Positions 2,584 to 30,317 of a stretch of DNA of 48,606 nucleotides are shown piece by piece. The notes below the pieces were generated by a model. The model searched no databases. It was not told the DNA's origin and was given only the letters and a program-made list of their open reading frames with translations. The stretch is taken from contig JAZJZE010000034.1 in NCBI GenBank assembly GCA_040390065.1, positions 1 to 48,606 of the forward strand, given 5' to 3'. The stretch comes from a bacterium (GTDB lineage: Archaea; Thermoplasmatota; E2; JACPAO01; JAHFTW01). The position numbers and the translations under genes were made by a program. The stretch's first letter is position 1, and each line of letters opens with the position of its first letter.

Positions 2584-2664
2584 GGGGGTGTACTGGTGTT
2601 CGACCGGGAGAAGGGGCTAATCACCCTGTGAACCGGGACGGCGGTTCGATTCCGCCCACCTCCA
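2584..2664 (+). ncRNA. Mini-tmRNA: tmRNA tRNA-like domain only, alanine identity, no mRNA-like domain
   Basis: Acceptor stem GGGGGTG/CACCTCC with G3-U70 and discriminator A; stemless D-loop ending TTCGA; helix CCGG/CCGG; GAC linker; T-arm GGCGG-TTCGATT-CCGCC. Followed by CTA rather than CCA. Confidence 0.85.
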
Positions 2665-2706
2665 CTAGCCGTCCGCCGACCCTTACTTCTTGGCCGAGGC
2701 CCAGGG

Positions 2707-2922
2707 TCAGGCGGGCGGCTGAGCCTTGAACCAGAAGCGGATGCCGCCCTCAGCGGGCAGCTCGGCCATCACCGCCCCGACCGGCGGGTTGCCGCCGAAG
2801 AGGGCCGCCCACTTCTGCCCCTCCCAGCAGTCCCGGATGAAGACGAACAGCTCCGGGTCCTCGATGAAGTCCTTCGCGGACCACTCGTAGCGCCGGGTCT
2901 CCAAGAACTCAGCGTCGGTCAT
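2707..2922 (-). CDS. Hypothetical protein (MTDAEFLETRR...)
   Basis: GGAGAAGG RBS before ATG at 2922; coupled to the upstream stop. Confidence 0.65.
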   Translation of the reverse strand: MTDAEFLETRRYEWSAKDFIEDPELFVFIRDCWEGQKWAALFGGNPPVGAVMAELPAEGGIRFWFKAQPPA

Positions 2923-4032: not shown

Positions 4033-4210
4033 TGATGTCCTCCTCGTAGACTTCAACCATGTAGTGGTGACCAGCGGCACACCACCGTGTTTCCCACCAC
4101 ACCCGGATGTCCTGGCCCTCGCGGCCGACACCAGCGGCGCTGGTCATCGGGCCGACGGCCTCGGACGGGGCGGTGCAGTTCTCCTCTAGGCACTCAGTCC
4201 AGGTCGTCAT
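4016..4210 (-). CDS. Small Cys/His, possibly Zn-binding protein
   Basis: CxxxxC...CAAGH; GGAG RBS. Confidence 0.65.
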   Translation of the reverse strand: MTTWTECLEENCTAPSEAVGPMTSAAGVGREGQDIRVWWETRWCAAGHHYMVEVYEEDISDGYE

Positions 4211-6338
4211 TGGTCATCTCCATCAGCTCGACCAGGTCCTCGTCGCCCGCCTTGGCGTGCGCCCACGTCTGCCCGGCGGCGGGGTCGAACAGTAGGGGGA
4301 CCCGCAGCTCGTAGCCGTGGGCGGTCTCGGCGAGTGGCTTCAGCTGCTGTGCCCGCTCGTATCCCCACACGCCATACTCGTCCACCTCCCACACTAGCTC
4401 GTCGTGGACCTGCGCGAGGAGGCGAAGCTCCGGCATGGCCTGGTCCGTGACGACCATGACCCGGCGGATGATGTCGGCCGCCGACCCCTGCACGATGGCA
4501 TTGACCGCCTGGCGCTCGCCGTATCCGACCATCTTCCAGTTGGCCGTGTCCTTGAAGGCGGCGCGCAGGCGGCGGCGCTGCCCTCCGATGGTGCGCACGT
4601 TCCCCCGGCGCTTGGCCGTGGCCATGACCTGCTTCTTCCAGGCGAAGAACCCTCGGTAGAAGCGGGACATCTCGGCCAGGTACCCAGCGGCCACATCCTT
4701 GGTGGTCGGGTAGCCCGCCAGCGACAGGACCTGGGCCACCTTCTTGGGCCCGGCGCCGTATCCCATGGCGAAGTTCAGCGTCTTGCCGATGCCGCGCTCG
4801 TCCCCGTCGGGGTCGATGCCCTCGCCGAAGATGCCCTGCGCCGTGATGAGGTGCGGGTCCCCTCCCTCTCGGAACACCCGCATCATGTGCGCGTCCTGGC
4901 TGAAGTGGGCCATGAGCCGCATCTCCAGCTGGTCGTAGTCCCCGACCACGAGCAGCGTGCCGGGCGCGGCGTGGAACAGGCCACGCACCTGCTTGCCCCG
5001 CTCGCCCCGGGCCGGGACGTTCTGAAGGTTGGGGCCGGAGGACGACAGCCGCCCGGTCACCGTGCCCGTCTGATTGAACCGCCCGTACAGGCGGCCCTCG
5101 TGGGCCTGCTCGGGCCAGCGGGTGAGGAACGTGGTCAGCAGGGTGTTCAGCTTGCGGTACTCCAGGCAGAGCTTCTTCACCCACGGGTCCCCGGCGTGCA
5201 TGTACAGCAGCTCGGGGGACGCAGTGCTCGGCCGCTTGCCCACGACCCCGGTCACCTTGTCCCGTGGCGGGGGCGTCGGCTTGAGGCCCCGGCCCATCAC
5301 GGTCCAGTGCCCGTGCACCCGGTCACGCCCGAGCTTGTCGAGGGTGAACCCCTCGGGCAGGTAGTCCACGACGTGCGACAGCATGGCGTTGTCCCAGTCC
5401 CCGTCGTTGTCGATGGCCGCCTGGCCATACGCGAACATCGGGTCGGGCTCGCAGTCCTCGTGCTCCCCGTCGAGGCAGGACTTGAGGCACTGGATGGTCT
5501 CCACGTCGTAGACGAGGGCGTCGTTGAACGTGACCACCCGGCTGAACAGGTAGCTCGCCAGCTGGTCGCCGCTGTTCAGGTTGAACGACGGAGGCAGCCC
5601 GCCCTCGGCAATCAGCTCGGCGCCGATGCGGTCGGCCTCGGGGCGCAGCTCTTCCGCCAGCGCCACGGTGGCGGGGATGTCGACCGGCAGACCGCGGGTC
5701 TCCATCCGCTGGAGGACCCCGGTGTACGGGACCATCTCGGTCTCGTAGTAGTCGAGCCACTCCGACTCGGCGAGCCGCGCTTCGAGCGAGTGCTCCAGCT
5801 TTCGCAGCCCGTTCACGTCGCGCCGGTTGTAGTCGATGAACTGTAGCCACTCGGGCGACATGATGGGGACGCCGTCTATCTCCCCGACCACGCCCCACTC
5901 CCGCCAGTCCGACAGGTCGAGGTCGCAGCCAGCGTCGTCCTTGAACAGGACGCGCCCGGCCACACGGTGGAGGCGCTTGTCCATGTCCAGCCCGGCGTAA
6001 CGCCATGCGAGCCAGTCGATGTCGAGCGGGGTATTCTCGTTCATGACCCACGCCATGACGGTGGTGTCGAAGATGGGACCCGCCACCTCGAACCCGGACA
6101 GCGCGAGGTACCGGGCGTCGTACTTCGTCTGCTCGACGATGCCGATGCTCGGGTCAGCGAGCAGCTCCAGGAACAGGGGGGTGCTGAGGTCGTGGTGGTC
6201 GGCGCCGTTGAAGTCGAACCAGTCGAGCACCGTCACCTGGTCCTCGCCCATGGCAAAGCCCACGAGCAACAGCTCCTCCCGGGCAGGGTGGGGCGTGACC
6301 GTGGTCTCCACGTCGAGGTACATCTTCTGCATTCGCAT
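4194..6338 (-). CDS. polA: Family A DNA polymerase with 3'-5' exonuclease
   Basis: ExoI LDVET, ExoII KYD, ExoIII YNRRD; TGRLSSSGPNLQN; motif A DYDQLEMR, motif B KTLNFAMGYG, motif C VHDE. Confidence 0.97.
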   Translation of the reverse strand: MRMQKMYLDVETTVTPHPAREELLLVGFAMGEDQVTVLDWFDFNGADHHDLSTPLFLELLADPSIGIVEQTKYDARYLALSGFEVAGPIFDTTVMAWVMNENTPLDIDWLAWRYAGLDMDKRLHRVAGRVLFKDDAGCDLDLSDWREWGVVGEIDGVPIMSPEWLQFIDYNRRDVNGLRKLEHSLEARLAESEWLDYYETEMVPYTGVLQRMETRGLPVDIPATVALAEELRPEADRIGAELIAEGGLPPSFNLNSGDQLASYLFSRVVTFNDALVYDVETIQCLKSCLDGEHEDCEPDPMFAYGQAAIDNDGDWDNAMLSHVVDYLPEGFTLDKLGRDRVHGHWTVMGRGLKPTPPPRDKVTGVVGKRPSTASPELLYMHAGDPWVKKLCLEYRKLNTLLTTFLTRWPEQAHEGRLYGRFNQTGTVTGRLSSSGPNLQNVPARGERGKQVRGLFHAAPGTLLVVGDYDQLEMRLMAHFSQDAHMMRVFREGGDPHLITAQGIFGEGIDPDGDERGIGKTLNFAMGYGAGPKKVAQVLSLAGYPTTKDVAAGYLAEMSRFYRGFFAWKKQVMATAKRRGNVRTIGGQRRRLRAAFKDTANWKMVGYGERQAVNAIVQGSAADIIRRVMVVTDQAMPELRLLAQVHDELVWEVDEYGVWGYERAQQLKPLAETAHGYELRVPLLFDPAAGQTWAHAKAGDEDLVELMEMTNDDLD

Positions 6339-6393: not shown

Positions 6394-6466
6394 CACGCAC
6401 GCACGCACGCACGGATGCCTTCTGTTTGTAAACCAAGTGCAATCTGCCTGACGTATACGTATACGT
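6394..6466. repeat. (CACG)5 tandem repeat (6394-6413) and 16-bp palindrome ACGTATACGTATACGT (6451-6466)
   Basis: Read directly in the lower-GC divergent intergenic region. Confidence 0.85.
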
Positions 6467-17076: not shown

Positions 17077-20000
17077 CTAAGCAGCGGCGGCAGCGGGCTG
17101 CACCGGGCCGGGCGTGATGCCCAGGCCGGTCAGGATGCCGTCGATGCTACCGATGGTGCTGGTCAGGTCGTCCTTGGTCGGCAGTGGGTAGCCGACTTGC
17201 TTCAGGTACTCCATGGTGGGCACGATGGTCGAGTAGTAGAAGTCCAGCTCGGTCGAGGACAGAGCGGCCTCGTCCACCTTGTACCCGCCGAGCCCGAACA
17301 GGGCCGAGGTGAGCACGTGCTGGCGGTTCGTCACCCGCGCCGGGTCCTCCGTGAGGAAGTTCTTGAACCGGCTGTAGATGGGGATGGTGCCCAGCAGGTT
17401 CTGGGTCTTGTCGCTCATGTACGCCTTGCCGTCCGGGCCACGGGACGTGAGGCCCGTGGCGTCGAGCAGCGGCTCGATGATGTTGAAGAGCGGGTTCATC
17501 GGCACCTGCTTGCCGGTGATGGGCGCCCCGGTGTAGATGTTCTGGTGGAGCACGTAGCTCTGGAGGAACGGCGACACCGTGGGGAGGAAGGAGCTGATGA
17601 ACTCCCGGCCCGACATGAACAGGTCGGACATCGGCAGGTCCAGCATCATGGTGTCGTAGGTCCCGTCCTTGCCCACCGAGGTGGGGATGACGAACGACTG
17701 CATCATCCAGTCGGGGGCGCGGTACTTCTCCTTGTCGAAGTCCAGGCCCCGCGCGTCGAACACCGACCGCTGCGCCTTCTGCATGGCGAGCAGCTTCGCC
17801 GGGTTCTCTAGGAGCTGGTGAATCTGGAACGGGGTGTTGGTGCGCATCCACTTGTAGAAGGGGAGCACGTCCCGCACCCAGCCGTACTCCCAGTCGGTCA
17901 GGTCCTCGTAGTCGCCGTGCCGGACCATCGTGAACGCCCGGGCCTCCATGACCCCGCGACCCTCGCGCATGCCGCGCACGAGCGAGGCGGTGCGGAACAC
18001 GTTCTCGGTCATGGTCCCGGCGCCGCGCATGCCCTTGGCGTAGATGGGCAGGGCGCCCATCGTGCCGGACTTCCCGGCGTACTTCTTCTCGGCCTTCTCC
18101 GCAGTCAGGGCCGCTTCAGCGAACATGCGCCCGTTGGAGGCGGTGGTGTTCAGTGCGGCACCGAGCGAGGCCATGTCCGCGTAGGTCAGGTCCTCGACCT
18201 TCTTGCCCATCAGGGTCCCGCCCGGGATGCCCCGGCGGAGACCGGCGATGAACTCCGGGTCGCGTTTCATGATGGCCTCGGTGGCCCACTTGGCTTCCTT
18301 GCCGTGGGTCAGCTCGCGCTCCGCCATGCGGATGCGGCCAGCCGTCCAGTAGTCCTTGATGCTGACCCCGCCCAGCCAGTTGTTGAAGAAGGCGCCCTGG
18401 AAGTTGCGGAGGTGGAACCCGGGCATCAGCCACGTGGCCATCGACTTCCACCAGCCGTTGAACTGGCGCCACTGCCCGTGCGCGCCGTCCAGCTTGGGGA
18501 AGCCCTTCATGGCCATCTCGAACTCGTTCGCCATCACCTCGGGCATGGCGAACTGCTCGAAGCCGGGGATGCGGAGGACGGCCATGCCGGTGCGGTTGGC
18601 CGCGTCCTCGGCGGGTACGAGCGCGGCGAGCACCGGGGCGCGCTGCGTCTGCATGCGCGTAGCCAGTCGACCGGCCTCGTTCGTGGCCTCGGTCAGCTCG
18701 ACCTCCCGGAGGCGAAGCTCGCGCTGGGCCTTCTCGGCCTCGCCCTTCACGGCGTTCGCGCGCTTCTGCGCAGTGCGCTTGAACTTGTTCGTCCACTCCT
18801 TGACCGCCCCGATGTTCAGCTTCGCGCCCGCGGTGGAGAGCGACTGCGCGGCGGTGACGGTGGCGACCTCGTCCAGGTCGGTCACGTTCATGTCCGCCCA
18901 GTGGGCGTTCAGCAGCTCCCGGCCGATGCCCTTGCCCTGCCACTCGGGGGCGGTGATGGCCACGACGTTGCGCTCAAGCTGCATGCGCCGCTCGGACAGG
19001 TTGTAGTCGGGGCCGTAGCGGCGCTCGGCGGACAGGAAGCCCGAGTCGACCTTGCGGTAGCCCAGCACCTTGCCCTCGTCGTCGATGTAGTAGAAGGTCT
19101 CGGTCCCGTCGGCGTGGGCGCGCTTGATGATGCGGCCGAGCTTGCCGGTGCCCACGACGGCCATGCCGGAGTTGTCGAGGTCCCGGAGGCGGTCGAAGTC
19201 CTGCTGGGCGCGTTCGAGTCCGCCGGTTTGCTCTGCGTGTTCCAGCCCAGTGTCGACCCCGGCGTCTTCCTTGTCCGCCAGGTCGCGCTTGATGTTGTTG
19301 ATGATGCCCAGCTCACGCGCCCCGGCGTTGTCCACCAGGTCGGCGTAGGCCCGCTGCTCTTCCAGGTAGCTCTGTCCCAGGTGCTGCACCTTGAGGCGAA
19401 GCTCGGGAACCTTGCGGTCGTCGAGCAGGCGAGCGGCCCGAGTGGCGGCGACCTTGGCCTCCTCGGACATGGACTCCATGGCGTCAAGGCTCTCCGGGCT
19501 GATGACCACACGGTAGCGGCCGAACCCGGCCGCGCTCTGGCCGAAGCCCCCACGCGCCAGGCCCAGGCTCTCCGCCATGCGGAGCGTGTCGCCCGCGTGC
19601 TGGGCCACGACCTTGTTCGAGACCTGCGTCGAGGTCTCCTTGAGCACGGCCACGGGGTCGGTCTCGAAGAACGACTGCCCCTCGCGGAGCACGACGCCCT
19701 TCGCGGCCAGGCGGTCCTTGGCCAGCGCCTCGGCCTGCGGGCGCGGCATGTCGCGCGCCTCGCGCAGGATGCTCTGGATGAGGTCGGTGCCCTCGGCCCG
19801 GTTGGTGCCGAGCACGGCCTCCTTGGCCCCTATGGTCACGGCGCGCAGCTGCGACCCGCGGTTGGGGGACAGCGCGGCGGCGCGCGGGTTGACCCGCGAG
19901 AACATGGTGGTGCCGGTCTTGTCGTCGTAGAAGCCGACCACGGTGACCTTGCCGTCGGCGCCCTTGATGCGCACGCCTGTGTATCCGTCGGACTTCAGGA

Positions 20001-23000
20001 TTTCGGTGGTGATGTCGGCGAGCTGCTGCTCCTTGGCCCCGCCGCGGCGCATGACATCCCGCACTGCCTCGGCGGCCTCGGGCGACACGTCCTCGCCAAA
20101 CTGGTAGGTGCCCGCTGCGATGTCGTCGAGCACCGGGGCGTAGGCGTCCTGAATCTCCGCAATGCGGTTGACCACGCCCGACGCCTCGCGCCCTGCTCCG
20201 GCCACCACGGGGGAGTAGTCCACGTCCAGCAGGTTCTGCGGGCCGAGCCCGGCGAGGCGAGGCTGCGCGATGTAGGAGGCCTCCGGGCCGGTCAGCGTCA
20301 CGACCTGCGCCTGCACGCCCGCGGCCAGGTCGTCCTCGGGGCCGGAGCCGTTGAGGAGCTGCTGCACGCGGTCCTGTGCCGAACGGGTGCCAGCGGCGGG
20401 GACTTCCTCGGCCTTCTTCAGGACCTGGGGGTTGAGGACGGCGGTGCCCTCCCCAGCCTGGTCCTTCATCTGGATGACATCGTAGCCCTGGGCCTTGGCC
20501 TCGCGGGTCAGGCGGTCGTAGTAGTTCGCGTGGCGGCCGGTGCCGCCGACCTCCTTGGCTTCCTTGCCCGCCGCCATCACGGCGTCGAACTCGGGCGTCC
20601 CCTCGACGAGGACCTTCGCCCCCGGCTGGATGTCGTACGCCTCCACGCTCCCCCCGGGCAGCTTGGCGTAGTCCTCCGCAACGGTGCGGTCGTGGGACCC
20701 GAAGACGTTCTTGAACCACTCCTTGGTCGAGTCGTTCGCCTCCTTGCCGGGGACGTGGCCGCGGTAGAAGCGGCGGGGCGCGTCGATAGTGCCAGACGCC
20801 TCGACCGGCCCCATCAGGACGCCGGGGGCGGGCGGGGCGGCCATGCGGTCGGCGGTGTCCACCGGGCCGTATCGCGCGCTGGCGCCCACCGGCACGTTCT
20901 CGCCGATGGGGCCTACCTGCTTCGCAGCGAGCCCGCGGATGGGCAGCGTGGTGCCGTCACCCAGGTCCACCACGTCGGTCAGGGCCTCCACGTCGTTCGG
21001 ACCCTGCGACACCGTGACCATCGGTGTCTCGTACTCGTGGCCGTCGAACGAGTGAGCCTTGGCGTCCTCGGGGCGCACGTGCTCGCGGTCGGCGAGGGTC
21101 TCCCCGTCGGCGCCGAGCTGCACGTGGTCGGGTGCGAGGCCCGAGTTGACGAGCGCCTGGTCGTGCTGGTGCGCCATCGTGCGCCACAGGTCCGGGAGGT
21201 CCTCGTCATGGCCCAGCTCGACGATGCGCTGCTCCACCCGCTGCGCGGTCGCGCGGTCCTTCTCCAGGTCGGCGATGGCCTGCGTCGGGTCCTCCCCGCG
21301 CTGGGTCGCCTGGAGCTGGGCGTCGGCGATGAGCCGGTCGTAGTAGTCCTTGGCCTTGGTGCCCGGCTCGGGCACGAGGCTGCGGTACTCGTTCAGCGCG
21401 TCGGTCAGCTCAATCTGCGAGGTGAGCCCGCCCGCGTCCCCGGCGGCCTTCGAGGCCTTCACGACACGGCCGATGGACTGGTCCGGCGTGAGCACCGTCT
21501 TGCCGTCGGACAGCGTCACGGTCTGCACCTCGTCGATGACCTGCTGGCGCATGTGCTTGAGCTGGAGGTTGGCGTCCCGGGCGTACGCGGCCGGAAGCCC
21601 GCCGCCGCGGAGCACGGCCGCGTGGGAGCTGAAGTGCTCGGTCAGCTTGCCGACCTGCTCGGAGGCGGAGTAGTAGATGGAACGGGGACCCTTGGCCATG
21701 TCGCGCGCAGCCGCGCTGTTGCTCAGCGTGCGCAGGCCGGAGAAGCCCTTCTCCCAGAAGATGTGCAGGTCCTCGGCCGTGGCAGCGCCCTGGCCCACGA
21801 GGCGCGACAGCTTGACCCCGCCGGAGAGACCGGAGAAGAAGCGGCGCCCCATGGAGAAGTCCATGAAGGAGGCAGCGAAGGGCATGCGCTGCCCTGCCAC
21901 GCGGATGTCCAGCAGGGGGATAGACATACGCAGGCGCACGCCGCCGAAGGCGCCCGCTGCGGCCTTGCCCGCGGTGTAGGAGGCCTTGTCGACGCCGATG
22001 CCGGTGCCCGCCTTCACGTAGCCGCGTAGCACGTCGTCGACGGCGGACTTGGACACGCCGAGCTTGTCGGCCGTCTCGGCCGTCACGCGCTGCCAGCCGT
22101 TGGTCGTGGCCTCGCGGAACATGTCGTCGCCAAGGCGGAGCAGCTCCTGGGCGGCGACGCGCGTGCCCTCCTGGTCCAGCACGAAGGCCACGTTCGGCAC
22201 GGCGTCGGGGTGCACGCCGGTCAGCGCCTGGCGCACGCGCGAGAGGATACCAGTGGACCCCTTCTCGGCGAGGGCCTGCCCCGGCGAGGAGAGCCCGAAG
22301 ACTGCCCGGCCGATTTCGTTCACGTCCTTGGTGCCGAGCTGGTCCCCCACGACCTTCATCAGCTGCCCGATGTCGGCGGTCTCGCCTGCGGCGACCTGCA
22401 CGCCCTTCTCGGCGAGGGCGGCGGAGGTCCGTTCGGTGACCTGGATGGAGCCTTCCTTCATGGCGGCCACAACGCTGGCCTCGCCGACGGTCTTGCCGAT
22501 GACCTCGCGCCCAATGGCGCCAGCGCCGAAGGTCAGCCAGGTCAGGGGGTCAGTGGCGATGTCGCCGATGAACCCGGCAGCGGCCGTGAAGAAGTTCCGC
22601 CCCATGCCCATGTTGTCGGTCAGCACGTCGGCCCAGTTGGTGTCCGACTTGCCGAGGAGCGCGTCGCTCGTGTTCTTCCAGACGCTCTCCTTGCCCCAGT
22701 CGTGCACGATTTCGGGCAGGACGTGAGAGGCCCGGCCCATGATGTCGAACACCACGTCGAGCTTCGTGGCGTGGAGCACGTCGCCCACGCCCTTCATGAT
22801 GTCCTTGTACCAGGGCAGGTCCTCGCCCTCGCTCTTGCCGTGCTGCGCGGCGATGGACTGCGCCAGCTCGGGGTTCACCTGGGCAATCTTGGCCAGGGCT
22901 GCGTCGGTCTGAGCAGCGGCGGTCTCGGGGGTCCACGTGGCCGGGTCGCTGCCCGCGCCCAGTGCCCCGCCGGTCAGCTTCTCCAGGAAGGACATGGGGG

Positions 23001-23202
23001 CAGCCGTGCGTCCACCGGCCGCGACGGCATCGGGGGCTGCGCCGGTCGCGGTCTGCGCGCCCATCAGTACGGGCGGGTTGCCCAGCGCAGCGCCGAGCTG
23101 ACGCTCGTCGTTCGTCAGCCCGAACAGGGGGACGGGGGCGAAGGTCGGGAAGAGCGGAGCGGGCGCGGGAAGAACCGGGCTTGGTGCGGGCAAGAACGCC
23201 AT
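17077..23202 (-). CDS. Large internal virion/DNA-ejection protein with ART-like and GNAT-like domains (2041 aa)
   Basis: Third and largest gene after the tail nozzle; DPLTWL motif; PGFHLRN...PFYKW C-terminal region; FYRG..GYD and QGKGIG motifs. Confidence 0.8.
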   Translation of the reverse strand: MAFLPAPSPVLPAPAPLFPTFAPVPLFGLTNDERQLGAALGNPPVLMGAQTATGAAPDAVAAGGRTAAPMSFLEKLTGGALGAGSDPATWTPETAAAQTDAALAKIAQVNPELAQSIAAQHGKSEGEDLPWYKDIMKGVGDVLHATKLDVVFDIMGRASHVLPEIVHDWGKESVWKNTSDALLGKSDTNWADVLTDNMGMGRNFFTAAAGFIGDIATDPLTWLTFGAGAIGREVIGKTVGEASVVAAMKEGSIQVTERTSAALAEKGVQVAAGETADIGQLMKVVGDQLGTKDVNEIGRAVFGLSSPGQALAEKGSTGILSRVRQALTGVHPDAVPNVAFVLDQEGTRVAAQELLRLGDDMFREATTNGWQRVTAETADKLGVSKSAVDDVLRGYVKAGTGIGVDKASYTAGKAAAGAFGGVRLRMSIPLLDIRVAGQRMPFAASFMDFSMGRRFFSGLSGGVKLSRLVGQGAATAEDLHIFWEKGFSGLRTLSNSAAARDMAKGPRSIYYSASEQVGKLTEHFSSHAAVLRGGGLPAAYARDANLQLKHMRQQVIDEVQTVTLSDGKTVLTPDQSIGRVVKASKAAGDAGGLTSQIELTDALNEYRSLVPEPGTKAKDYYDRLIADAQLQATQRGEDPTQAIADLEKDRATAQRVEQRIVELGHDEDLPDLWRTMAHQHDQALVNSGLAPDHVQLGADGETLADREHVRPEDAKAHSFDGHEYETPMVTVSQGPNDVEALTDVVDLGDGTTLPIRGLAAKQVGPIGENVPVGASARYGPVDTADRMAAPPAPGVLMGPVEASGTIDAPRRFYRGHVPGKEANDSTKEWFKNVFGSHDRTVAEDYAKLPGGSVEAYDIQPGAKVLVEGTPEFDAVMAAGKEAKEVGGTGRHANYYDRLTREAKAQGYDVIQMKDQAGEGTAVLNPQVLKKAEEVPAAGTRSAQDRVQQLLNGSGPEDDLAAGVQAQVVTLTGPEASYIAQPRLAGLGPQNLLDVDYSPVVAGAGREASGVVNRIAEIQDAYAPVLDDIAAGTYQFGEDVSPEAAEAVRDVMRRGGAKEQQLADITTEILKSDGYTGVRIKGADGKVTVVGFYDDKTGTTMFSRVNPRAAALSPNRGSQLRAVTIGAKEAVLGTNRAEGTDLIQSILREARDMPRPQAEALAKDRLAAKGVVLREGQSFFETDPVAVLKETSTQVSNKVVAQHAGDTLRMAESLGLARGGFGQSAAGFGRYRVVISPESLDAMESMSEEAKVAATRAARLLDDRKVPELRLKVQHLGQSYLEEQRAYADLVDNAGARELGIINNIKRDLADKEDAGVDTGLEHAEQTGGLERAQQDFDRLRDLDNSGMAVVGTGKLGRIIKRAHADGTETFYYIDDEGKVLGYRKVDSGFLSAERRYGPDYNLSERRMQLERNVVAITAPEWQGKGIGRELLNAHWADMNVTDLDEVATVTAAQSLSTAGAKLNIGAVKEWTNKFKRTAQKRANAVKGEAEKAQRELRLREVELTEATNEAGRLATRMQTQRAPVLAALVPAEDAANRTGMAVLRIPGFEQFAMPEVMANEFEMAMKGFPKLDGAHGQWRQFNGWWKSMATWLMPGFHLRNFQGAFFNNWLGGVSIKDYWTAGRIRMAERELTHGKEAKWATEAIMKRDPEFIAGLRRGIPGGTLMGKKVEDLTYADMASLGAALNTTASNGRMFAEAALTAEKAEKKYAGKSGTMGALPIYAKGMRGAGTMTENVFRTASLVRGMREGRGVMEARAFTMVRHGDYEDLTDWEYGWVRDVLPFYKWMRTNTPFQIHQLLENPAKLLAMQKAQRSVFDARGLDFDKEKYRAPDWMMQSFVIPTSVGKDGTYDTMMLDLPMSDLFMSGREFISSFLPTVSPFLQSYVLHQNIYTGAPITGKQVPMNPLFNIIEPLLDATGLTSRGPDGKAYMSDKTQNLLGTIPIYSRFKNFLTEDPARVTNRQHVLTSALFGLGGYKVDEAALSSTELDFYYSTIVPTMEYLKQVGYPLPTKDDLTSTIGSIDGILTGLGITPGPVQPAAAAA

Positions 23203-27477: not shown

Positions 27478-30317
27478 TAGCGGAGGAGTGTCTGCATGTA
27501 GGCAATGTAGTCCAAGTAGAAGAACCTGGACGTGGTACCCGCCGACTTGATGATGCCGCATTCGTAGCCGTAGGGGTTGCTCGTGCCCGAGCTGGGCGAG
27601 GACTGCGTGCTCACGAGCACATCGTTGATGTAGAACGTGATGGAGTTGACTCCCGCAGCGGCGGTGATTCGGATTTCCAGCTTGTACCAGGTGCTGGCCA
27701 GCACGGTGACGCTCGAAGTCGAGTTGGCCCCGTTGAGCTGGCACTGCCACTTGCCCGAGTCCACGCTGTCGATGTACGAGAACTCGACGTTGCGGGCAGC
27801 CGCTGCCGTCAGTGAGCCTGTGTCGGTGAGCCCGAACCGGATGGTGTACCGGTTGGTCGAGTCCGAGAGGTTGGTCTCGGTGCGGAGCCAGCAGACGAGC
27901 CGGAGTTCGCCCGTCCCCAGGATGATGTTCTTGGGCGCGTCCGACTCCGTGGTGACCCCGGCCTTGCCCACCGAGGTCGTACCGGTGGCCCCTCGGTAGA
28001 TGCCCGGGTGCTCGGCTTCGTGGATGGTGTTCGCGCTGCCCATGACCGCGCTCGTGCCGGTGTTGGTAATGGCAATCCCGTTCAGGGCCGCTGCCTGCCC
28101 CGTCAGGAAGTCCTCTTCCTGGAAGGCGCGGTCTCCCGCGAACTTGTGGTTGATGTAGGACCCGAACCCGGTACCCGAGGCCGAGACCTCCTGGGCCAGC
28201 TCCTGAAGAGCGGCCGAGAGCGTCGTCGCGGTGATGATGCTGGCCGCGTCGGTGATGGGGATTTCGGTGTCGTCGAGGGTGATGTTGGCCTCGGTGGCCG
28301 GGGATGAGGTCACGTCGAACCCGGGGCCGAAGTCCAGGGTCGCCACGGCGGAGTCGACGGTGGCGTCCTCCTCCTGCACGGTGAGCGCGCCGGTCGGGCC
28401 CGCCGGGCCCACGCCGTTGGCGGTGTAGGCGAAGCGGACCATGAGCACGCGCGCAGCGCCCGTCGCAGTGTCGACGCCGGTCCCTGCGTTACGCTCGACG
28501 TTCACCTTGACCAGAGCGCCAGCGGCGGACGGCGTGAAGGTGGTATCCAGCGTGGTCAGCTTGACTGTGGTGGAGTCGGCGACCGTGGTGCCCGCAGCCG
28601 CGAGGCTGGAGACCTCGGCCGGGCTGTCGCCCACGGCCAGCTCGGACTCCGAGAGGAGCCAGCGCACATCGCCGGAGGAGGTCGAGGTATACCAGTAGAT
28701 GGCGCACGTGATGGCCGTTCCGGCCTTCCAGTCCCCCGGCACGACGTAGCTGCCGAAGAACCCGGTGCGGTTGCCCACCTCGGTGTGGACCGTCTGCGAG
28801 ACCAGGTCCGGGCTCGTGCCGGTGTTGCCGAGCGTGGCGTCGTCGTAGGACACCTCGTCCGGGCTGAGGTAGAAGTAGCGGGTGGCCGTGGCCACGCCGC
28901 CGATTTCGGCAAGGACTGCCTCCACGTCCGTGCCGGTGAAGTAGTTGGCGGTGTCGAGGACGCTGATGGCCGAGGCGTCGTGGGCGTCGGTCGTATCGGT
29001 GAGGTGGCCGAGGAACGTGATGGCGTCGGTCGAGTCCCACAGCGGCCGCCACCGCGTAGACGTGCCGTCGTACCAGAGGGCCATCATCTCGCCCTCTTGC
29101 ATGGTCATGTCGCTGGCGCCCGAGATGCGGTACGCGGCGGTCGACGTGCCCGCGTTCACCTTCAGGGTCACGCGGTCGGCGCCCAGGTTCACGATGTAGA
29201 GAATCTTGCCAGCCACGCCGCCCTGGATGCCCTTGATTTGCCAGTCGGCGTTCGGGGTCACGCGGATGACCGAGGCCGCGGCGTAGCCGGTCGGGGCCCA
29301 GTCGTCCACGTCGGCCGAAAGGCTCGCGTTGATGGAGCCGCTAATCTTGAACGGGCCGAGCTGCACGTCGACGCTGTCGGGGATTAGGGCGTTCGTATCG
29401 TGGTCATGCGCGCCGCCCGCTGCGGCGGCGGCAATCCACTCGCCAGGCGTGGAGTCCCAGGTGAGCACGTCCCCGTTGGTGGGGGACGGGGAGGTGTTCG
29501 CGTCGGCGTGGTCGAGGATGTCGTGGTCGGAGCCGTCCGACCCGCCCCCGCCGCCAGCCCCCAACTCCTGAAGGGCCGCTTCGACCTCGGTGCCCGTGAA
29601 GTAGTTGCCCGCATCCACGATGCTGACGGCGCTCGCGTCGTGCGCGTCGGTCGTGTCGCCCGTGTGGGCGTCCAGCTCGGCCTGGGTCGCCATGTCCGCG
29701 GCGAACGAGGGGTTGGGGTAGGTGCCCCCGAGCACGCCGCCCGCGGCGTCGCCGTCGTTGACCGCGTCGCTGTGCGCCCCGGTGTAGCCGGTGCCGTGGG
29801 CGTGGCGGTGGTCCGACCGGGCTGGGGTCGATGCGGAACCATCGGCCGCGGTGGCGGCCACGGCCACCGGGTAGCTGGAAGAGGGGGCCGGGTAGGCGTG
29901 CTGGTGGTCCGCGTTCGGGACCTCGACGGAGCTACCAGCCGCAGCGGCGTCCCCGATGTCGATGGAGGAGAGGTCGCCCGACTCGGCGGCGTTGTGGTCC
30001 CCCTGGTCGTGGGCCTGGTTGTGGTGGTCGTTCGGGGACACGTCCTCCAGCTCGTCGTGGCTGGTGACTGCGGCCCCGCCCGTGATTTCGATGACCTCGC
30101 CGTCGACCCCGTTCTCCAGGCCGACGTGCTCGGCGATGGCGTCCACGTCCCCGGCGAGCCGGTTGAACTCGTCGACGATGCCCTTCGCATCCCCCGAGAG
30201 GGAGTCGAAGTTCTCCTGTGACGCCTTGATGATGCGGTCCAGAAGCTTGCGCAGGTCCGCCTCGCTCATGTTCTTCATGTCGAACGGGAGCGAGGAGAAG
30301 CGAGCGTGGCGGGGCAC
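27477..30317 (-). CDS. Tail fibre/receptor-binding protein (946 aa)
   Basis: N-terminal coiled coil; ARSDHRH and GTYPNPS fibre motifs; three spacer repeats; beta-rich C-terminal domain. Confidence 0.8.
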   Translation of the reverse strand: MPRHARFSSLPFDMKNMSEADLRKLLDRIIKASQENFDSLSGDAKGIVDEFNRLAGDVDAIAEHVGLENGVDGEVIEITGGAAVTSHDELEDVSPNDHHNQAHDQGDHNAAESGDLSSIDIGDAAAAGSSVEVPNADHQHAYPAPSSSYPVAVAATAADGSASTPARSDHRHAHGTGYTGAHSDAVNDGDAAGGVLGGTYPNPSFAADMATQAELDAHTGDTTDAHDASAVSIVDAGNYFTGTEVEAALQELGAGGGGGSDGSDHDILDHADANTSPSPTNGDVLTWDSTPGEWIAAAAAGGAHDHDTNALIPDSVDVQLGPFKISGSINASLSADVDDWAPTGYAAASVIRVTPNADWQIKGIQGGVAGKILYIVNLGADRVTLKVNAGTSTAAYRISGASDMTMQEGEMMALWYDGTSTRWRPLWDSTDAITFLGHLTDTTDAHDASAISVLDTANYFTGTDVEAVLAEIGGVATATRYFYLSPDEVSYDDATLGNTGTSPDLVSQTVHTEVGNRTGFFGSYVVPGDWKAGTAITCAIYWYTSTSSGDVRWLLSESELAVGDSPAEVSSLAAAGTTVADSTTVKLTTLDTTFTPSAAGALVKVNVERNAGTGVDTATGAARVLMVRFAYTANGVGPAGPTGALTVQEEDATVDSAVATLDFGPGFDVTSSPATEANITLDDTEIPITDAASIITATTLSAALQELAQEVSASGTGFGSYINHKFAGDRAFQEEDFLTGQAAALNGIAITNTGTSAVMGSANTIHEAEHPGIYRGATGTTSVGKAGVTTESDAPKNIILGTGELRLVCWLRTETNLSDSTNRYTIRFGLTDTGSLTAAAARNVEFSYIDSVDSGKWQCQLNGANSTSSVTVLASTWYKLEIRITAAAGVNSITFYINDVLVSTQSSPSSGTSNPYGYECGIIKSAGTTSRFFYLDYIAYMQTLLR

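Follow-up and report, generated by a model that had tools for sequence, protein, structure and literature searches.

A probable tag-less tmRNA gene, reduced to the tRNA-like domain, on a tailed-phage contig, and a predicted virus-enriched family of such RNAs

Almost all bacteria possess trans-translation, which is a target for drugs, and little is known of how phages handle it. Contig JAZJZE010000034.1 of assembly GCA_040390065.1 raises that question in an unusual form. The whole stretch analysed, hereafter the window, is the complete 48.6-kb contig (C34), and within a few dozen bases at positions 2584-2667 it appears to carry both halves of the tRNA-like domain (TLD) of a transfer-messenger RNA (tmRNA). 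Is this a tmRNA gene without its messenger part, a misread tRNA or the scar of an integration event, and what could such an RNA do for a phage?

Our answer to the first part of the question is that the element is very probably the tRNA-like domain of a tmRNA standing alone, i.e., a tag-less tmRNA gene carried by a phage. The Rfam tmRNA model RF00023 matches 2584-2667 at 55.9 bits (gathering score 47, E 2.4e-19) and is the sole Rfam family above its gathering score in the window. The alignment spans model positions 1-374, with 316 central positions replaced by 25 nt, and the blocks of the consensus (stemless D-loop GG(N)UUCGA, helix 2a, GAC linker and T-arm GGUUCGAnUCC) are aligned with high posterior probability. 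Clan competition within Rfam assigns the element to RF00023 and not to RF02544. The tRNA model RF00005 gives it 27.6 bits against a cut-off of 29, far from the 37.9-73 bits reached by the real tRNAs of the same genome bin, and ARAGORN run on the window called neither a tRNA nor a tmRNA and reported no tag peptide. The first-pass annotation, a reading of the letters alone, had proposed a phage tmRNA domain with its halves in normal order and the tag domain gone, and had named a better score as a canonical tRNA as grounds for giving the idea up; the two model scores come out on the side of the proposal and, as it had anticipated, the tmRNA model is matched at its ends only, with the centre deleted.

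The element is not a full tmRNA, having no resume codon, tag open reading frame (ORF) or pseudoknots and only 25 nt between the strands of helix 2a. Nor is it a canonical tRNA, being below the RF00005 cut-off and without D-arm and anticodon arm, nor a phage attachment site (attP) within ssrA, as both halves of the domain are present and the tyrosine integrase family PF00589 has no match on the contig (serine recombinases were not searched).

Coordinates are collected in Table 1. The element is 81-84 bases long (about 81 nt without CCA), and its computed minimum free energy (MFE) fold equals the proposed structure exactly; each coordinate given for it in the first-pass annotation agrees with the sequence. 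The third acceptor pair is G3-U70 (G2586-T2661) and the discriminator is A2664. G3-U70 together with discriminator A73 is the identity rule for alanine. Where a bacterial tmRNA has pseudoknots and a tag ORF, the MFE fold has a distal module made of a 5x5 internal loop, GAGAA/GTGAA, around a 4-bp GGGG/CCCT hairpin with the 7-nt loop CTAATCA.

Table 1. Features of the element without coding sequence (CDS) and of its immediate surroundings, in window coordinates; GC3 is G+C content at third codon positions.
Feature	Position	Strand	Basis
Upstream gene, 182 aa, weak sigma-70 region-4 type helix-turn-helix	2028..2576	+	high-GC3 ORF
Predicted CDS-less (tRNA-like-domain-only) tmRNA gene	2584..2667	+	RF00023 match, MFE fold
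Acceptor stem, 7 bp, GGGGGTG / CACCTCC	2584-2590 / 2657-2663	+	sequence check
D-loop, no stem: TACTGGTGTTCGA	2591-2603	+	
Helix 2a, 4 bp, CCGG / CCGG	2604-2607 / 2633-2636	+	
Distal module, 25 nt, standing in for pseudoknots and tag ORF	2608..2632	+	MFE fold
GAC linker	2637-2639	+	
T-arm, perfect, GGCGG / TTCGATT / CCGCC	2640-2656	+	
CTA in place of CCA at the 3' end	2665-2667	+	
Long GC-rich hairpin between the convergent + and - gene blocks	2666..2721	.	folding energy
Last gene of the converging minus-strand block, 86 aa	2707..2967	-	ORF and GC3 analysis

That the carrier is a tailed phage is indicated by its genes, which in Pfam and PHROG searches include PolA, a primase of archaeo-eukaryotic type (AEP), a DnaB-type helicase, the major capsid protein, a portal and adaptor of SU10/P22 type and the large terminase. 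We read the contig as a tailed-phage genome, and as an apparently lytic one. The nearest isolate phages are distant, with less than 31% amino acid identity in terminase and capsid and less than 40% in PolA, for which every match spans less than 80% of the query.

Full-length relatives were not found when 2400-2800 and the 84-nt element were compared by BLAST with 50,697 phage records: the matches comprise T-arm and acceptor only, with at most 48% coverage. Those in phages TClif and Shandong1 were set aside as attP sites (3' part only, with a tyrosine integrase gene directly downstream), and those in SM1, BUCTxx99, VspSw_1, S-CAM1 and Calle_1 as tRNAs or as ordinary or partial tmRNAs, scoring at most 32 bits with the family model R1 introduced below. 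A search of IMG/VR for related loci via the upstream protein and PolA found none. A strict pattern of the conserved tmRNA blocks with the halves 24-54 nt apart, applied to IMG/VR, returned at least 120 stretches representing at least 90 distinct sequences, most of them 77-80 nt long among the matches listed. The same pattern in GTDB species genomes gave 16 stretches; one of them carries the label 'archaeon' and the other 15 carry bacterial labels, from many phyla. A metagenome scan with a narrower pattern, restricted to the GGTG D-loop variant of the window, yielded 38 stretches (24 distinct), mostly of one subfamily on contigs with TARA or marine-metagenome names, and the distal module of the window is in none of them. 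BLAST of two family members against phage isolates returned nothing full length, BLAST being weak on such short RNAs.

Existing tools see these elements incompletely. RF00023 exceeded its gathering score in 15 of the 20 IMG/VR and DS6A loci scanned, always as a full-length match with the centre deleted, and missed L032, L035, L082, L097 and the element of Mycobacterium phage DS6A, discussed below. ARAGORN recognised no family member correctly and made an overlapping call in 9 of 174 loci, namely eight long or permuted tmRNAs placed on the 3' end of the mini-tmRNA and one tRNA-Arg (L050, L075 with the tRNA-Arg, L124, L133, L158, L181, L183, L193 and L201). In the miscalls that 3' end is joined to an unrelated upstream start, with implausible tags; ARAGORN calls of this sort in phage annotations may be hidden mini-tmRNAs.

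The evidence that such elements are maintained as RNAs comes from comparison among them. A first alignment of 68 sequences, in which the window and DS6A were joined by 66 of the 90 distinct IMG/VR elements (near-duplicates and length outliers omitted), gave 19 pairs in RNAalifold, 14 of them with compensatory changes, and the A of the GAC linker, a base not required by the search pattern, is at least 90% conserved in it. The covariance model R1 built from this alignment scores DS6A at 64.1 bits, family members at 42-88 and the window, which was in the seed, at 61.8. We then considered 100 sequences aligned to R1, with one match each at E <= 1e-6 (the window, DS6A, the 16 GTDB loci and 82 of the 120 IMG/VR loci). 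Standard pairs occupy 96.7% of cells compared with 65.2% in shuffles, and the covariation score is 0.777 against 0.152, a value that none of 500 shuffles reached and that falls to 0.104 or less when partners are slid by 1-3 columns. Changes on both sides occur in 14 of the 19 pairs, comprising all seven of helix 2, four of the five in the T-stem and acceptor pairs 5-7. Because the three helices covary strongly and members often lie near tRNA genes, we conclude from the alignments that mini-tmRNAs form a functional RNA family and not a set of attachment-site relics. This also settles in its favour a point on which the first-pass annotation had staked its reading, i.e., that homologues of a relic should show decaying pairs: the wider viral family shows no such decay and keeps all three helices by compensatory change.

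The usual distal design of the family is a 7-bp helix 2, an NAA bulge and a 4-bp hairpin. The window shares the general plan, with standard order, a length within 65-92 nt, the core of the tRNA-like domain, a helix 2 capped by a short hairpin and no ORF, and we regard its element as a divergent member of a virus-enriched family of tag-less tmRNAs. The bases that follow helix 2 are usually NAA (65 of 100 members), and they hold a stop triplet in 41 of 100.

Where these genes lie adds to the picture. Among the matches listed, 40 of the 120 IMG/VR loci have another tRNA gene and 28 elements have one within 300 nt (on the same strand in 25), at a distance of 50 nt or less in 12; some loci hold 10-20 tRNA genes. 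Such frequent placement in tRNA operons argues for expression and processing of family members in the manner of tRNAs. Four bacterial genomes with a mini-tmRNA also carry a normal tmRNA (70-161 bits), and in these 23-27 of the last 34 nt are identical between mini and resident tmRNA and the acceptor stems differ, so the minis do not look like fresh deletions of the host gene. The numbers of matches, at least 120 in viral sequences versus 16 in GTDB species genomes, point to a virus-borne lineage.

Two loci outside IMG/VR deserve mention. The only match in an isolate genome (L165) is on a 1.13-Mb scaffold of Terracoccus sp., where the mini scores 41.4 bits with RF00023 and 71.9 bits with R1; a normal tmRNA of 161 bits is also present, no informative Pfam match was found at the locus, and the location of the mini may be a prophage. 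The other (L159/G042) is in a metagenome-assembled genome (MAG) of 1.1 Mb labelled 'archaeon', with a member at 86.7 bits with R1 and 65.9 bits with RF00023 and no full tmRNA, and is a second candidate for misbinning or archaeal association.

As a kind, the CDS-less phage tmRNA of DS6A type is already described. 'Mycobacterium phage DS6A (TLD only)' is an entry listed in a passage of Hudson, Lau & Williams 2014 (PMC4131195), and the relevant section of the 2025 tmRNA database update counts nine 'Standard, no CDS' forms among 97,179 sequences and mentions CDS-less tmRNAs in mitochondria and two plastids (PMC11915505). Our literature searches found no report of such RNAs as a large family in phages, and some of the elements presented here may already be in the tmRNA database. 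What is new is the occurrence of one in an unrelated, apparently lytic phage and the commonness of the type in uncultured phages, where routine annotation misses it.

By our analysis the element of DS6A lies at 28478-28560; RF00023 gives it 43.2 bits, slightly short of the cut-off. Like that of the window, it is phage-borne, in standard and not permuted order, about 80 nt long and without a tag ORF; its acceptor stem contains G3-U70, two extra nucleotides follow GG in a D-loop that has no stem, helix 2 is short, T-arm and discriminator A are present, and it sits in an intergenic gap, about 9.6 kb from the integrase gene. The two differ in their carriers, DS6A being a temperate siphovirus with a tyrosine integrase whereas the portal and adaptor of the window's phage are of podovirus type (SU10/P22-like) and nothing on its contig matches a tyrosine integrase. 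They also differ in the distal part, which in DS6A is the usual 7-bp helix with a CCGC/GCGG hairpin and in the window a 4-bp helix with a different hairpin. TTCGA and GGTTCGA, both retained in the window, are GTCGA and AGTTCGA in DS6A. The GenBank record of DS6A has no feature annotated at 28478-28560, between gp33 and the DNA pol III gene; the phage also encodes an RtcB-like RNA ligase, gp76.

Set beside the bacterial one-piece tmRNA described by RF00023, the element matches the consensus of the tRNA-like domain at almost every highly conserved position and lacks about 316 model positions that form pseudoknot 1, the resume codon, the tag ORF with its stop and pseudoknots 2-4; without this messenger part it could not serve as a messenger. 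Full-length phage tmRNAs, such as those of cluster C mycobacteriophages and Streptomyces phages, are likewise phage-encoded, have a similar 3' half and often adjoin tRNA genes, but they keep a tag ORF, e.g., ANSKFAFALAA* as annotated in Streptomyces phage records. The CDS-less tmRNAs of organelles (those of jakobid and oomycete mitochondria, RF02544, and two plastid genes of about 65 bp in the corresponding section of PMC11915505) have also lost the mRNA-like region and kept an alanine-accepting domain, and SmpB dependence is presumed for both. The organellar forms are the outcome of reductive evolution of a resident gene, whereas the phage form is an extra gene, found beside an intact tmRNA in the four bacterial genomes examined.

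With the window, the one published phage example is joined by a second, from an apparently lytic phage that is not related to DS6A. The window also led to a type that is common in uncultured viruses, with at least 90 distinct sequences from one strict pattern compared with nine 'standard, no CDS' forms in the curated database, and that standard annotation overlooks: ARAGORN called none correctly, some members fall just below the Rfam cut-off, and the feature table of DS6A is silent. A family model such as R1 would allow these genes to be annotated and the role of tag-less tmRNA in phages to be tested in culturable systems.

What might the RNA do? The reading that we favour, and to which we give about even credence, is that the element is an alanine-chargeable, SmpB-binding competitor of host tmRNA. 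Its transcription would come last in the rightward operon, 8 nt past the upstream stop codon, with the hairpin at 2666-2721 as downstream boundary, and it would be excised as tRNAs are, by RNase P at the 5' end and trimming at the 3' end, after which a host enzyme would have to add CCA, since CTA is encoded in its place. Alanyl-tRNA synthetase (AlaRS) could then charge it with alanine via G3-U70 and A73, and the conserved GG..UUCGA D-loop, GAC linker and T-loop would be expected to bind host SmpB and EF-Tu. As the RNA has neither resume codon nor tag ORF, it would compete with host tmRNA for SmpB and stalled ribosomes and so lower ssrA tagging during infection. An SmpB decoy or a tag-less rescue function has already been suggested in print for the DS6A element in the passage cited above (PMC4131195). 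As quoted there and in the 2025 update (PMC11915505), Mao et al. 2009 saw strong inhibition of tmRNA in E. coli by a DS6A-like molecule of the tRNA-like domain only, perhaps by SmpB titration; inhibition held even for an unchargeable form (PMC4131195).

Several observations weigh against this reading or against the element itself. The folding energy is ordinary (z = -0.81; 47 of 200 shuffles are as stable), so the signal lies in sequence plus structure and not in stability. No RNA sequencing run was found to contain the window; the one run that contains it in full is of DNA, from a watershed metagenome and possibly its source. CCA is not encoded at 2665-2667, as the first-pass annotation had already noticed, so it must come by addition after trimming; among the matches listed it is encoded in only 33 of 90 distinct members. 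No close homologue of the window's variant or of its phage was found in phage-record, IMG/VR and metagenome searches, and the covariation evidence thus comes from the wider family and not from the window's own lineage. In that evidence the search pattern had itself preset acceptor pairs 1-4 and some of the T-arm, and the alignment was fitted to R1. With a helix 2 of 4 bp instead of 7 and a distal hairpin unlike that of the family, the window is an outlier, and because its distal part is atypical the covariation supports the core and not the distal module. The neighbourhood of tRNA genes suggests a role in favour of translation at least as well as inhibition. Finally, the contig lies in an archaeal bin (G000) without SmpB, tmRNA or sigma-70 region 2 above cut-off, and if the host were truly an archaeon there would be no SmpB to bind.

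The alternative that survives best is productive rescue without a tag, which we hold possible and less probable than competition. Here the charged RNA, with SmpB and EF-Tu, would enter stalled ribosomes and the nascent chain would be moved onto its alanine, the ribosome being freed by a release pathway or by further alanine-adding rounds; the phage would gain free ribosomes and the product would bear no tag. The RNA and family evidence is the same for both readings, and the elements within phage tRNA clusters (the 28 of 120 listed that have a tRNA gene within 300 nt, including loci with 10-20) suggest support of translation. Mitochondrial CDS-less tmRNAs, according to the corresponding part of the database update, are found together with SmpB, and a part in dealing with incomplete mRNAs is supposed for them (PMC11915505). 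Such rescue would have to do without a template and without a stop codon for release, and the sole experiment cited in print, in the passage on DS6A (PMC4131195), shows inhibition even when charging is impossible. A stop codon after helix 2 was considered as a conserved release feature and rejected, being present in only 41 of the 100 members.

It is also conceivable, though improbable, that the RNA absorbs, or is sensed by, host defence factors that recognise the tRNA-like domain of tmRNA, for instance the SmpB-like domains of CoCoNuT type IV restriction systems or RNases acting on tmRNA. The SmpB-like OB folds of CoCoNuT systems are predicted, in the relevant passage of PMC11090510, to bind tmRNA, and the strong virus enrichment (at least 120 IMG/VR matches and 16 in GTDB species genomes) would fit. 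Against this stands that the idea is purely inferential, with no defence gene linked to the elements, and that an RNA without an anticodon loop could not decoy anticodon nucleases. For the same reason we do not follow the first-pass annotation where it offered a decoy for anti-phage tRNA/tmRNA nucleases: lacking that loop, the RNA would be a poor one for anticodon nucleases.

A broader picture, in which tRNA-like-domain-only tmRNAs are an old virus-specific RNA lineage with hundreds of members in marine, soil and gut phages, often in tRNA operons, and reprogram ribosome rescue, is put forward tentatively and seems to us somewhat likelier false than true. Such a lineage could act by blocking ssrA tagging, by adding alanine(s) to stalled chains without a template or as a decoy for SmpB or SmpB-like defence domains. 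If true, trans-translation would be a general battleground between phages and hosts, and a compact natural inhibitor of it would be at hand.

A further alternative concerns the host. Were C34 truly from the archaeon of the bin, the RNA would have to act independently of SmpB, e.g., by mimicking a tRNA that accepts alanine or by marking the 3' end of the early transcript for RNase P processing, which we consider very improbable. The bin G000 (2.68 Mb, 89% complete) is archaeal by its ribosomal protein S28e, and C34 has the same G+C content, 0.669. Searches for SmpB in 13 genomes (the bin and 12 relatives) were negative throughout, on the contig as in the remainder of the bin; apart from the window's element no tmRNA scores above cut-off in the bin, no permuted alpha-type tmRNA was found there, and sigma-70 region 2 has no match above cut-off. 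The second family member in an 'archaeon'-labelled MAG (L159) would suit an archaeal origin too. Sequence composition argues otherwise: the tetranucleotide correlation of C34 with the bin is 0.932, compared with at least 0.994 for the other contigs longer than 20 kb except C10 (0.961), and a Shine-Dalgarno-like motif precedes 21 of 49 C34 ORFs, compared with 37 of 341, 34 of 303 and 31 of 475 on three chromosome contigs (7-11%, from crude gene calls). None of 37 other genomes from the order yielded the C34 capsid gene, no short or spacer-like matches to C34 occur in the rest of the bin, and none that are spacer-like occur in the order, where only imperfect chance-level DNA matches turned up (a weak test, with seven candidates per genome scored). 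The relatives of the C34 PolA, DnaB-type helicase and capsid are bacteriophage proteins. A peptidoglycan hydrolase or other gene telling of the host was not found among the 39 ORFs scanned with Pfam, PHROGs and NCBIfam. Genes for tmRNA in archaeal MAGs are ascribed to probable misbinning in the section of the database update that deals with them (PMC11915505). We take it as much the likelier that C34 is a bacteriophage contig misbinned with an archaeon.

Apart from C34, contigs C10 (67 kb, r 0.961) and C50 (19 kb, r 0.938) deviate in tetranucleotide use, and C36 (1.3 kb) has a sub-threshold sigma-70 region-2 match; the bin may thus contain further foreign or mobile contigs.

That the element is a functionless relic, whether a captured tmRNA in decay or what integration into a host tmRNA gene left behind as attachment site or pseudogene, seems to us scarcely credible. 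The 3' ends of tmRNAs are indeed found in phages with ssrA as their integration site, and the attP of the Mycobacterium phages TClif and Shandong1 contains sequence that is identical or similar to a tmRNA 3' end, as the window's element does. However, in both phages only the 3' part is present, directly upstream of a tyrosine integrase gene, while the window has both halves, fully paired, and no tyrosine-integrase match. The family moreover retains acceptor pairs 5-7, helix 2 and the T-stem by compensatory changes, and its elements are unlike the resident tmRNA in the four genomes compared.

An unusual but ordinary decoding tRNA, to which the cloverleaf-like acceptor stem and T-arm and the 27.6 bits from RF00005 might point, is refuted by model scores below the cut-off, far below those of the bin's tRNAs and half that of the tmRNA model, by the missing D-stem and anticodon arm and by the silence of ARAGORN, and we attach practically no weight to it.

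The surroundings of the element are compact. The stop codon of the upstream gene is TGA at 2574-2576 and the RNA gene begins 8 nt after it, a spacing which makes co-transcription of the two likely. The product of the upstream gene matches Pfam Sigma70_r4 at 22.3 bits (cut-off 24.1), and the NCBIfam matches YlxM and sigma70-ECF are also sub-threshold. The hairpin that follows the RNA gene has a folding energy of -38.8 kcal/mol (z = -3.70, with none of 200 shuffles as stable) and was not called by a simple terminator scan, as it lacks a T-run; it is a candidate bidirectional terminator or processing site without a U-tract. The 86-aa gene on its far side has no Pfam, PHROG or NCBIfam match, and the minus-strand block that it ends includes DNA polymerase A at 4194-6338. 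On the contig as a whole, ARAGORN found no tRNA genes, no exact terminal repeat was found and a scan for sigma-70 promoters remained at chance level.

Two minor features of the contig lie further away. Where the PolA block and the rightward replication block diverge, the intergenic DNA holds a (CGTG)5 microsatellite at 6394-6413. In the structural block, a minus-strand ORF of 2041 aa (17077-23202) has a weak GNAT-like match only and may encode a giant internal or ejection protein.

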